A stretch of 32,596 nt of DNA from Bacillota bacterium. Its GTDB lineage: Bacteria; Bacillota; Clostridia; Christensenellales; JAEXRW01. Below, piece by piece: positions 18,423-27,057 of this stretch (its first letter is position 1; every line of letters starts with the position of its first letter). The stretch covers positions 1 through 32,596 of the forward strand of contig JAUYED010000073.1 in NCBI GenBank assembly GCA_030691525.1, read 5' to 3'. Under the pieces are notes generated by a model that saw only the letters and a program-made list of their open reading frames with translations, made no database searches and was not told where the DNA came from. Both the position numbers and the translations under genes were made by a program.

Positions 18423-18749
18423 CTAATCAAGCCGCGCGCCGCACTTTTTGCAGGTGCGGTGCTTCTTGCCCGCATTATCTATTTCATGCCCCACGCGGGC
18501 CGCTTTGTGGCACTTGGGGCAAAGAGCCATGACATTGCTGGCATTTATCGCAGCTTCCTGCTTCAGCCGGCCGCCGCGCTTTCCCTGCCCGCGGGGCTTG
18601 GTATGGCGGAGGACGACATTGACACCCTCTACGACGACCCTGTCTTCGGACGGTATGGACTTTAGGATCTTGCCTTTTTTGCCCTTGTCCTTGCCCGAAA
18701 TGACTACGACCATATCGTCTTTTCTCACGTGCAGATTCTTTACAGCCAT
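18423..18749 (-). CDS. rplX: 50S ribosomal protein L24 (Cys4 C-terminal variant)
   Basis: Has the KOW motif HVRKDDMVVVISGKDKGKKGKIL. The track start at 18764 is a GTG inside the SD AAGGAGGTG, so I used the ATG at 18749. The C-terminus carries CPKCH...CKKCG. Confidence 0.92.
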   Translation of the reverse strand: MAVKNLHVRKDDMVVVISGKDKGKKGKILKSIPSEDRVVVEGVNVVLRHTKPRGQGKRGGRLKQEAAINASNVMALCPKCHKAARVGHEIDNAGKKHRTCKKCGARLD

Positions 18750-18768
18750 TTTATTTTTCTGCACCTCC

Positions 18769-19137
18769 TTACAAGACTTCGGGAGCGAGGGAAACTATCT
18801 TCATGTAATCCTTCTCACGAAGCTCCCTTGCTACCGGTCCGAATATGCGGGTGCCCCTGGGCTGCTTGTCGCTCGTAATGATGACAGCAGCATTGTCGTC
18901 AAACCTGATATGCGACCCGTCGGCGCGCCGGACGCCCTTCACCGAGCGTACGATGACAGCCATCACGACTTCCTTCTTTTTGACCACTCCACCGGGGGCG
19001 GCGGTCTTTACCGACGCTATGATCACATCGCCTATATTGGCTGACCGGTGAAATGAGCCGCCCAGCACCCTGATGCACTGGATCACTTTCGCACCGGTAT
19101 TGTCGGCCACTTTCAACCGGGTTTGCGGCTGAATCAT
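18769..19137 (-). CDS. rplN: 50S ribosomal protein L14
   Basis: Starts [27 protein letters not shown]. Confidence 0.95.
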
Positions 19138-19178
19138 GGCTTAACCCTCCTTATCGTCTGCCAAACCTTTGCCTTGCT

Positions 19179-19652
19179 TTATTTGGCTTTCTCCACTATC
19201 TCCACCAGGCGCCATCTCTTTTCCCTGCTGAGCGGCCTGGTTTCCATGATTCTTACGGTATCACCCACGCCGCATTCGTTTTTTTCGTCGTGGGCTTTCA
19301 GTTTCGTAGTGCGGTTGAGCGTTTTGCCGTAGAACGGGTGCGTTACCCTTGTCTTGACGGCGACCACTATGGTCTTATCCATCTTATCGCTCACGACTAC
19401 GCCGGTCCTGACCTTTCTATTGGCCCTTTCGGCGACCACTATGGTCTTATCCATCTTGTCGCTCACGACCATGCCGGTTTTGGTCTTTTTACTGGCTTCG
19501 GCGTCCACTATGGTCTTATCTATCTTGTCACTCACGACTGCGTCGGTTTTGGTCTTTTTACTGGCTTCGGCGTCCACTATGGCCTTATCTATCTTGTCAC
19601 TCACGACTGCGTCGGTTTTGGTCTTTTTACTGGCTTCGGCGTCCACAGACAT
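19179..19652 (-). CDS. rpsQ: 30S ribosomal protein S17 with a 69-aa repeat-derived N-terminal extension
   Basis: The C-terminal 86 aa ([28 protein letters not shown]...[20 protein letters not shown]) are canonical S17. Three in-frame 23-aa repeats of the N-terminal segment precede them. The ATG at 19652 lies 5 nt after AGGAGG, and the frame is uninterrupted. Confidence 0.85.
19368..19646 (-). repeat. tandem repeat array inside rpsQ: three 69-bp units plus the ancestral 72-bp unit
   Basis: Coding-strand units are R1 19646-19578, R2 19577-19509, R3 19508-19440 and R4 19439-19368. R1 and R2 differ at 1 of 69 nt (GCC versus ACC). R2 and R3 differ at 6 nt. R4 is more diverged and 3 nt longer. Each unit starts GTGG(A/T)CGCCGAA and ends GATAAG(G/A)CCATA. 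Confidence 0.95.
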
Positions 19653-19676
19653 TTCCTCCTCCTAAATATCGCATTT

Positions 19677-19880
19677 CTATCTGGCTGCGACCTTTATCTC
19701 ATCTTCGCGCAGCAGTGTCTTCACGCGCGCGATGTTCTTCTTGCATTCCCTTATCTGCATGGGGTTCTGAAGCTGGCCGGTAGCCAGCTGAAAGCGCAGG
19801 TTGAAAAGTTCAGTCTTGTACTGCGCCAACTTTTCATTGAGCTCTCGAAGGGTCATCTCCCTGAACTCACTGGCTTTCAT
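19677..19880 (-). CDS. rpmC: 50S ribosomal protein L29
   Basis: Starts [37 protein letters not shown] moved the start from 19916 to the ATG at 19880 (67 aa). It overlaps the rplP 3' end by 14 nt. Confidence 0.92.
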
Positions 19881-20310
19881 GATTTTCACCACCCGATACA
19901 CTGCCTTCTCTGGCAATAAATTTGCACTTCATAGGGAGCTTGTGCATGGCAAGGCGCATGGCTTCCTTGGCATCTTCTGCAGATACGCCGCCTATCTCAA
20001 GCACCACCCTGCCGGGCTTGACTACGGCGACCCAGTATTCGGGTGCGCCTTTGCCGCTGCCCATGCGCGTTTCTGCCGGTTTTTTGGTGACGGGCTTGTG
20101 AGGGAAGATCTTTATCCAGACCTGCCCGCCCCTCTTGGTATAGCGCGTCAATGCGATGCGCGCCGCTTCTATCTGGCTGCTGGTGACCCAGGCAGGCTCA
20201 ACGGCCATCAGGCCGTATTCCCCGTCGGATATGAAATTGCCGCTCGTGGCCTTGCCTTTCATGCGCCCGCGGTGCCAGCGTCTGTACTTCACGCGCTTTG
20301 GCATCAACAT
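19867..20310 (-). CDS. rplP: 50S ribosomal protein L16
   Basis: Reads [19 protein letters not shown]...[13 protein letters not shown]. It has a TAATG junction with rpsC. Confidence 0.95.
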
Positions 20311-24503: not shown

Positions 24504-24681
24504 AAAAATGTTCCTCCTTAATTCTGCAAGGACCATATACACTGTGCCGTGTGTGCCATATTTGATTTTAACACGGCGAAGCGAATACTGCCCGCCGCCC
24601 GTTTATTACGGACATTTGTCTGCGGAAATCTCCCGGGTTCGCCCCGGCAACCTCCCGCTTCATCCCATAAATTGCGCAACG
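24504..24681 (-). promoter_or_regulatory. structured 5' leader of the S10 operon (~180 nt)
   Basis: This is the transcribed region between the promoter and rpsJ. It holds nested GC-rich helices: GCGGGA..CCGGG-GCGAA-CCCGG..TTCCGC, GTCCGT-AATAA-ACGGGC and CCGTGT..ACACGG. By analogy with L4-mediated control in E. coli it is a candidate r-protein autoregulatory leader. I could not confirm a family assignment. Confidence 0.3.
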
Positions 24682-26282: not shown

Positions 26283-26356
26283 TGGAGCGGGTGATGGGAA
26301 TCGAACCCACGCAACCAGCTTGGGAAGCTGGAGCTCTGCCGTTGAGCTACACCCGC
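26283..26356 (-). tRNA. tRNA-Gly (anticodon CCC), CCA encoded
   Basis: The manual cloverleaf is GCGGGTG-TA-GCTC-AACGGCA-GAGC-T-CCAGC-TTCCCAA-GCTGG-TTGC-GTGGG-TTCGATT-CCCAT-CACCCGC-T-CCA. It is 74 nt, with a perfect 7-bp acceptor stem, a TTCGATT T-loop and a U73 discriminator. Confidence 0.9.
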
Positions 26357-26421: not shown

Positions 26422-27057
26422 TCATCCCGAAGCTAAAAATTTATCCAATTTGGCTTTGATGCGCTGCAATGCGTTGTCAATGGATTTGACATGCCTGCCC
26501 ATCTCCTGCGCTATCTCCTGGTAAGACTTTCCTTTCAGGTAAGACGTCAGCACTTCACTCTCCAGCCCGGACAGAAGCTTTCCTATATAGTTTTTCATGG
26601 AGAGAAGTTTTTCCCTGTCTATGACGATCTCCTCGGGGTTGGATTCGTACTCTCCGCAGATCAGATCTATCAGCGCTCTGTCCGACTCTTTGTCAAACAC
26701 GGGCTTATTGAGGGATATATATGAATTCAAAGGGATATGTTTCTGCCTGGTAGCCGTTTTGATCGCAGTGATTATCTGCCTCGTGATGCACAGTTCGGCA
26801 AAGGCCTTGAAAGAGGCCATCTTTTCATACCTGAAATCGCGGATGGCCTTAAAAAGCCCGATCATACCTTCCTGTACGATATCTTCCCTGTCTGCGCCGA
26901 TCAGGAAATATGAGCGCGCTTTGGAACGGACAAAGTTTTTGTATCTCTCCATAAGACATTCCGTCGCGATGCCATCGCCGTTCTGCGAAGCATGAGCCAG
27001 CTCTTCGTCCGTCTTTCCGGCAAACGATGCACGCAGTTCCTCTTTATCCTCTTCCAA
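26422..27057 (-). CDS. sigH: RNA polymerase sporulation/stationary-phase sigma factor SigH
   Basis: Has sigma-70 region 2 (DREDIVQEGMIGLFKAIRDF) and a region 4 HTH (SYQEIAQEMGRHVKSIDNALQRIK). It sits after rlmB, as in Bacillus and Clostridium. The TTG start at 27057 lies 6 nt after GAGGTG. Confidence 0.85.
   Translation of the reverse strand: MEEDKEELRASFAGKTDEELAHASQNGDGIATECLMERYKNFVRSKARSYFLIGADREDIVQEGMIGLFKAIRDFRYEKMASFKAFAELCITRQIITAIKTATRQKHIPLNSYISLNKPVFDKESDRALIDLICGEYESNPEEIVIDREKLLSMKNYIGKLLSGLESEVLTSYLKGKSYQEIAQEMGRHVKSIDNALQRIKAKLDKFLASG

Follow-up and report, generated by a model that had tools for sequence, protein, structure and literature searches.

The rpsQ gene of the Bacillota bacterium contig JAUYED010000073.1 (assembly GCA_030691525.1), whose 32,596 nucleotides were analysed in full and are called the window here, raises the question of how ribosomal protein S17 (uS17), which is an 86-aa protein in related Clostridia, came to be encoded by an open reading frame (ORF) of 157 aa, and whether the additional residues become part of the protein. 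The source organism is an uncultured gut or rumen-type Clostridia bacterium. A first-pass annotation made from the sequence had attributed the additional length to in-frame tandem copies of the N-terminal segment of S17. Our analysis leads us to conclude, with a probability of roughly two in three, that the 5' end of rpsQ carries a real, lineage-specific tandem amplification, the most likely product being a 157-aa uS17 whose ~70-residue tail is nearly neutral.

The rpsQ ORF lies at 19179..19652 on the minus strand and starts at the ATG that has the sole strong Shine-Dalgarno (SD) sequence. Tandem Repeats Finder (TRF) reported a single array at 19358..19646, with a period of 69, 4.1 copies, 90% matches and a score of 411, and all tandem repeats elsewhere in the 32.6-kb window scored 39 or less. 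These 4.1 copies take up 289 nt at the 5' end of rpsQ, as tandem units of 69 or 72 nt. In reading order, and all on the minus strand, they are U1 (19578..19646; 69 nt, 23 aa), U2 (19509..19577; 69 nt, 23 aa, with a peptide ending in KTI), U3 (19440..19508; 69 nt, 23 aa) and U4 (19368..19439; 72 nt, 24 aa), followed directly by a partial fifth copy of 10 nt, GTGGTCGCCG (19358..19367), which ends where the TRF array ends, at 19358. This GTGGTCGCCG is a direct repeat that encodes V-V-A, begins U4 and recurs just after it. U4 represents the authentic N-terminal tail and strand beta1 of the protein, and the rest of the S17 OB fold (VVAVKTRV...EKAK), together with the stop codon, occupies 19179..19367. 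The coordinates and counts of the first-pass annotation all agreed with the ORF list, the TRF output and our dissection of the units.

Pairwise comparison of the units showed 1 nt of difference between U1 and U2, 6 nt between U2 and U3, and 7 nt between U1 and U3, whereas U3 and U4 were separated by 10 substitutions and a 3-nt indel that corresponds to one codon. The 5' half of U3 is identical to that of U1 and U2, and its 3' half resembles U4. The resulting unit tree is ((U1,U2),U3),U4, from which it follows that the array arose in three steps: an old duplication, divergence of the upstream copy, and two later amplifications, the last of them very recent. Both the stepwise duplication proposed earlier and the recency of its latest event fit this tree, with U1, the youngest copy, differing from U2 by 1 nt.

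Two long ORFs on the opposite strand cross the repeat array and rpmC, one of 209 aa at 19290-19919 (+) and one of 103 aa at 19354-19665 (+), the latter itself repetitive and hydrophobic. Most likely they arise simply because repeated coding units leave an antisense frame without stops.

That the C-terminal 86 aa of the rpsQ product form a complete canonical S17, as previously claimed, was borne out by several comparisons. These residues aligned without overhang to the ordinary 86-aa S17 of related Clostridia (alignment A1, 41 relatives), and every residue invariant in this alignment was present in U4 and the core. All 13 family-invariant residues of the tail and beta1 (R79, K80, R82, G84, V86, V87, S88, D89, K90, M91, D92, K93 and T94) fell in U4. 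The Pfam family Ribosomal_S17 (PF00366) matched residues 84-151 with 125.1 bits against a cutoff of 25.9. Chains of uS17 in the PDB matched with E values down to 5e-34 and aligned only from query residue 70 on, mostly from residues 73-83. AlphaFold2 (AF2), when given the alignment, built the OB fold from U4, as beta1, and the core, with strands at 81-91, 94-104, 111-121, 132-137 and 149-155 and a predicted local distance difference test score (pLDDT) of 79-90 over most of the core. The position of beta1 (81-91) inside U4 and the start of the Pfam match at residue 84 bear out the identification of the units as in-frame copies of the authentic tail and beta1.

The first-pass annotation had also suggested predicting the structure of the extended protein; this gave the expected OB fold for the core and no confident structure for residues 1-71. 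With the alignment, AF2 modelled these residues as one long helix of low confidence (block-mean pLDDT 44-69), and on the single sequence it produced low-confidence beta-hairpins (pLDDT 48). Because the two runs contradict each other over residues 1-71, neither being confident, we propose only flexibility for this part, and the extension formed by U1-U3 is probably flexible.

The possibility that the array is an assembly artefact, which had been raised with the original observation, is now largely excluded, as two independent Logan contigs break where the array predicts that they should. A search for exact matches to L29 and L16, encoded nearby, brought up one Logan (k=31) contig from each of two SRA runs, SRR13727536 (99.78% identity to the window over 2.76 kb) and SRR22387775 (99.70% identity over 1.01 kb). 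Both contigs show the SD-ATG-TCT-GTGGACGCC entry into the gene (SD-ATG-TCT-GTGGAC), and both stop at window position 19617, exactly 30 nt (k-1) into U1. In a k=31 graph made from the window, the first unitig break is predicted at 19617, an in-degree-2 node, because the next k-mer has two predecessors, TCT followed by the unit and ATA followed by the unit. Since the contigs of both runs end at 19617, their reads hold the diverged unit after the start codon and also after something else, as expected of a tandem array; a single-nucleotide polymorphism bubble would not stop a contig like this. The array thus has independent read-graph support from two runs and is probably real, and its complete absence is unlikely.

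We consider it very improbable that the array or its copy number is absent from the genome. Such an artefact would be in keeping with the array being spanned by one contig only, with the single base that separates U1 from U2 over 69 nt, a degree of identity at which short-read assemblers can misjudge copy number, with the artefactual nature of the other "duplicated" S17 genes in public data (L088 and L089, described below), and with the start of a downstream contig at 19361, which the window does not predict. However, U3 and U4 are clearly diverged and differ by a codon indel, unlike the two-copy artefacts that are 100% identical, and the window has no other strong tandem repeat. In addition, two separately assembled runs open the gene with the diverged unit type and break at the in-degree-2 node (GTGGACGCC...AAA after another unit), and by our reasoning strain bubbles cannot make unit-to-unit junction k-mers. 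On this last ground we also rejected the idea that the units are co-assembled strain alleles of the N-terminal tail; an origin in a single-nucleotide polymorphism bubble was set aside as well, the ends of the Logan unitigs fitting entry into a repeat instead. The exact copy number, notably that of U1/U2-type units, comes from a single assembly, and an error in it, which would be compatible with our explanation of the locus, is a minority possibility.

In order to account for the structure of the array, we propose that in an ancestral rpsQ of about 88 aa two copies of the 10-bp direct repeat GTGGTCGCCG lay at a distance of 72 bp. Direct repeats are a classic substrate for duplication by slipped strands or unequal exchange, and the first duplication probably started from GTGGTCGCCG, when slipped-strand mispairing or unequal exchange between its two copies would have doubled the 72 bp that encode strand beta1 and the basic tail before it. 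Of the two resulting segments, the upstream one would then have drifted by 10 substitutions and the loss of one Arg codon, so that three Arg disappeared (two changed to Lys and one deleted), and this drifted copy would have been amplified twice more by unequal homologous exchange, with the latest event giving rise to U1 and U2, 1 nt apart. Because the duplications would have begun after ATG-TCT, the SD would not have been copied, and a single SD and start codon would have stayed upstream; each change in length is a multiple of three. The cell would accordingly make a 157-aa uS17 in which U4 and the core adopt a normal OB fold and bind 16S rRNA, and in which U1-U3 form a ~70-residue extension, near charge-neutral and probably flexible, that leaves the fold at the N-terminus. 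In solved Actinobacterial ribosomes the uS17 N-terminus is found next to helices h7/h9 of the 30S body, a site with room for natural N-terminal extensions, and by analogy the present extension may lie there too. The anatomy and frame of the array, the location of the SD, the uniqueness of the repeats, their read-graph support and the relaxed constraint on the extra units are shown by the data; how the duplication came about, that the tail is translated and where it sits on the ribosome are inferred.

The synonymous divergence between U3 and U4 was about 0.17 (2.5/14.5 sites), which is not below the divergence of the window from its closest relative (a rough estimate from 10 mismatches in 674 nt). 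The first duplication is therefore not brand new.

We next consider what has become of the copies. When the invariant residues were mapped by eye from the unit sequences onto alignment A1, U4 was found to have kept 13/13 with no changes, U3 11/13 (two Arg changed to Lys; it also lacks the codon for the nearly invariant Arg76), U2 9/13 (with the further changes Gly84 to Asp and Met91 to Ile) and U1 8/13 (with Thr94 to Ala in addition). Net charge decreased as well (U4, +3; U3, +1; U1 and U2, 0). The Nei-Gojobori ratio of nonsynonymous to synonymous differences (pN/pS) was about 0.66-0.93 for pairs of units with synonymous differences, each of these informative pairs contributing just 7-13 substitutions. 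Because of these ratios, the extra units appear to be under relaxed constraint, and the sequence comparison points to nearly neutral rather than adaptive evolution. In our preferred reading, the extension is an appendage that is tolerated and nearly neutral, a nascent ribosomal-protein extension and not an adapted module.

A contrary view of the same units would be that the extension is an adaptive or variable module, which might form beta-hairpins that bind rRNA or protein, supply alternative beta1 strands that swap into the OB fold, or act as a copy-variable tract that makes ribosomes heterogeneous. The VVSDK(M/I)DK(T/A)I half of the units is far better conserved than the basic half, U1 and U2 are alike enough for the tract to expand or contract, the unexplained break at 19361 may be a sign of heterogeneity, and Actinobacterial uS17 extensions do touch h7/h9. 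Nevertheless, pN/pS is near 1, the younger units progressively lose both invariant residues (G84 to D, M91 to I, T94 to A) and positive charge, the predicted structure is not confident, and the extension has no homologue elsewhere. The clustering of U3/U4 differences in the basic half, which could be a sign of gene conversion or of selection on the strand half, was not significant (7 differences in the basic half vs 3 in the strand half; Fisher p = 0.31). We therefore regard an adaptive or variable module as quite improbable. A resemblance of "A-SKK" in the units to the Prp cleavage site of Firmicutes L27 was also considered, as a possible mimic, and dropped, the required upstream residues being absent. 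The Prp site of L27 is FF/ASKK.

Whether the nearly neutral tail is translated depends on where initiation occurs, and this was evaluated from the energy of the anti-SD duplex with the 25 nt upstream of each start. The SD AGGAGGAGG (19655..19663, minus strand) precedes the ATG at 19652 with an energy of -12.2 kcal/mol and also serves a GTG at 19646. Neighbouring ribosomal-protein genes with a recognisable SD gave about -10 to -14 kcal/mol, and the internal in-frame candidate starts before U4 gave -1.5 to -5.9 kcal/mol, which upholds the earlier claim that the sole good SD lies upstream of the repeats. The strong SD goes with an ATG (19652) located 25 nt beyond the stop codon of rpmC, and from this ATG the frame runs into the core uninterrupted. 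As the only strong SD is upstream of the array, translation of the ~70-residue extension, giving a 157-aa uS17, is the best inference from the sequence, and S17 would hardly reach ribosomal-protein levels unless ribosomes initiated upstream and read through U1-U3.

Alternatively, the repeats could be real DNA that forms an untranslated or incidentally translated leader, with functional S17 starting at the internal ATG of residue 67 (19452..19454, minus strand; first base 19454), which is the start used by NCBI, or at the in-frame GTG of residue 72 (19437..19439, minus strand; first base 19439), which had already been pointed out, is indeed present, and would give the canonical 86-aa S17. The 86-91-aa product would be of canonical length, the public protein begins at residue 67, and the extra units evolve nearly neutrally, all of which would suit an internal start. 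Pairing with the SD is poor at both codons, however (-5.9 and -3.1 kcal/mol, against about -10 to -14 at the neighbours), and ribosomes that load at ATG 19652 must traverse the repeats, with no stop before the core. Moreover, neither the 72-nt first duplication nor the single 3-nt indel disturbs the frame, which would be needless in an untranslated leader, and the NCBI choice probably follows the usual length of the family, as we assume, rather than evidence of initiation. An internal start is thus improbable in our judgement.

Several observations weigh against a real, translated and nearly neutral extension. The window contig is the only one that spans the array, so that the order and number of the units rest on one metagenome-assembled genome (MAG), and the other contigs of the species all break at the array. 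The downstream Logan contig of SRR13727536 (L001), which is 99.97% identical to the window, starts at 19361, where the window predicts a k=31 unitig start at 19504; its position 1 lies inside the partial copy of GTGGTCGCCG at the 3' edge of the array, and there seems to be further heterogeneity at or near 19362 in the SRR13727536 sample. The NCBI protein MDP2892145.1 (P0002, "MAG: Bacillota bacterium") has 91 aa and starts at the internal ATG of residue 67. The closest relative lacks the repeat and has an unrelated tail and rpmC, which leaves the age of the first duplication unbracketed. Finally, the pN/pS values derive from the small numbers of substitutions given above.

This closest relative is a protein (P0004) encoded on contig L002 (ENA ERZ27247916 k141_4443825), which shares 98.5% DNA identity with window positions 18731-19404, from the VVSDKMDK codons of rpsQ through rplN. 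L002 is without the repeat, and neither its rpmC nor the N-terminal tail of its rpsQ, MPSNANARPHRKERVGI, can be aligned to the window. The breakpoint of this mosaic falls among the codons at which S17 is most conserved and suggests that lineages have recombined there or that the contig is chimeric.

Had the repeat been widespread in the lineage, the earlier observation would have been of a known feature; comparison of rpsQ across relatives excluded this. In none of 80 related species genomes did the rpsQ frame contain the SDKMDK motif more than once; the best relatives among them were uncultured Clostridia MAGs of about 83% identity, several of them from rumen samples and none repeat-bearing, and the genome of the window itself was not among the matches. 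In a phmmer search of 1.84 billion representative proteins, the top matches included ordinary S17, S17 with low-complexity tails, and a few duplications that included part of the OB-fold core; a tandem N-terminal repeat like that of the window was not among them. A query with the extension only had no match among 5.8 billion protein clusters, and such repeats were found in no other S17 among ~15 billion public proteins. Neither the 157-aa product nor the 91-aa protein of NCBI had an exact match in the contig index, and scans of JGI metagenomes with degenerate patterns (DAEASKKTK and a second pattern of 11 residues) gave 0 matches and turned up neither an ancestral single-unit allele nor a second full assembly. 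In the literature we found no earlier description of in-frame duplications in rpsQ, nor any under the run accessions. The extension, on the basis of these sequence searches, appears confined to one species-level Clostridia lineage and visibly young. As the public annotation uses the internal ATG, the repeat extension is missing from protein databases, and internal-start annotation could likewise conceal comparable extensions in other genomes.

The claim that this is an unusual ribosomal protein stood up as regards its self-repeat origin and architecture, which are new; an N-terminal extension of bacterial uS17 as such is already known. What is new is an extension built of copies of the protein's own tail and beta1. 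The uS17 of M. tuberculosis (RpsQ; PDB 5v93 chain q, 135 aa) has an N-terminal extension of about 50 aa, that of M. smegmatis (about 13 aa) contacts h7/h9 (PMC5876184), and that of Cutibacterium acnes (C. acnes) binds the major groove of h9 (PMC10085706); in the latter two species many other ribosomal proteins are extended too (PMC5876184, PMC10085706). These Actinobacterial proteins resemble the product predicted here from the ORF and SD in having extra residues before the OB fold, and their extensions emerge by h7/h9 in a manner compatible with a working ribosome. They differ from it in that their extensions are not repeats of their own beta1 segment, and no similarity to the extension of the window was detected.

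The eukaryotic and archaeal uS17 (RPS11) likewise carries an N-terminal addition of similar size, Ribosomal_S17_N (PF16205), on the same OB fold, human RPS11 having about 158 aa. This domain, however, is of independent origin and not repetitive, and PF16205 had no match in the S17 of the window even at E <= 10. Among predicted bacterial S17 proteins, long tails occur in P0134 (195 aa), P0252 (211 aa), P0015 (137 aa) and P0159 (172 aa), and also in P0221 and P0184. Low-complexity tails of this kind, predicted to span 50 to 125 aa in many bacterial S17 proteins, are acidic or rich in Ala, Pro and Thr; those of the first four proteins are acidic with much Ala, Pro, Thr and Glu. Gene callers thus often predict an extended S17, and the N-terminus appears permissive, but these tails contain no copies of the SDKMDK strand.

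Internally duplicated S17 proteins of 140-148 aa are also present in public assemblies (P0001/L088, P0003/L089 and P0121-P0123). In L088 (GCA_029782595.1, JARCCX010002463.1), positions 93-1524 hold four 100%-identical 2.0-copy duplications of 96, 102, 192 and 141 nt within 1.6 kb, in and around the genes for L16, L29, S17 and L14, and in L089 an exact duplication of 165 nt in S17 lies at 649-985 of a low-coverage SPAdes contig (4.9x). Both look like assembly stutters that make fake S17 proteins. Although they share with the window an in-frame tandem duplication inside rpsQ, theirs are exact, 2.0 identical copies over most of the OB fold, whereas the window has diverged units that are limited to the tail and beta1 and have read-graph support. 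These differences allow genuine self-duplications to be told from exact-copy stutters, which make S17 appear too long in some MAGs.

The near-identical, head-to-tail units of the array, with a length divisible by three (69 nt, U1 and U2 differing by 1 nt), also recall bacterial coding variable-number tandem repeats and contingency loci, in that they could expand and contract. Known loci of this kind mostly encode surface or host-interaction proteins and not core ribosomal proteins. It is unlikely that the array is a copy-variable translated tract giving mixed uS17 tail lengths, or that its strand-like units form hairpins that bind rRNA near h7/h9 or swap with beta1. If either were true, this would be the first core ribosomal protein to be caught early in gaining a functional extension through tandem duplication within its own RNA-binding segment.

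How the tails and extensions of ribosomal proteins arose is rarely visible. This single rpsQ preserves the intermediate stages side by side: the ancestral unit is still intact, an older copy is already short of arginines and of one codon, and two further copies are very young. The array may thus serve as a natural model of extension by self-duplication followed by decay into a neutral, flexible tail. If it is translated, as is likely, the uS17 N-terminus tolerates about 70 extra residues outside Actinobacteria, a feature that the public annotation masks by its internal start.

The gene belongs to a normal S10-spc-alpha cluster of ribosomal protein genes on the minus strand of the window, with tuf and an S10-Clostridia leader ahead of it. 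According to the ORFs and the Pfam labels of the flanking genes, rpsQ lies between rpmC (L29; 19677-19880, minus strand) and rplN (L14; 18769-19137, minus strand), the position expected for uS17 in the S10 operon. The S10-Clostridia ribosomal-protein leader was found upstream of rpsJ at 24595-24671 (minus strand), with 36.1 bits, barely over the gathering score. Within this window, the rpsL-rpsG-fusA genes do not precede tuf. A tRNA-Gly(CCC) gene (26283-26356, minus strand) is located between a sigma-70-family gene (26422-27057) and tuf.

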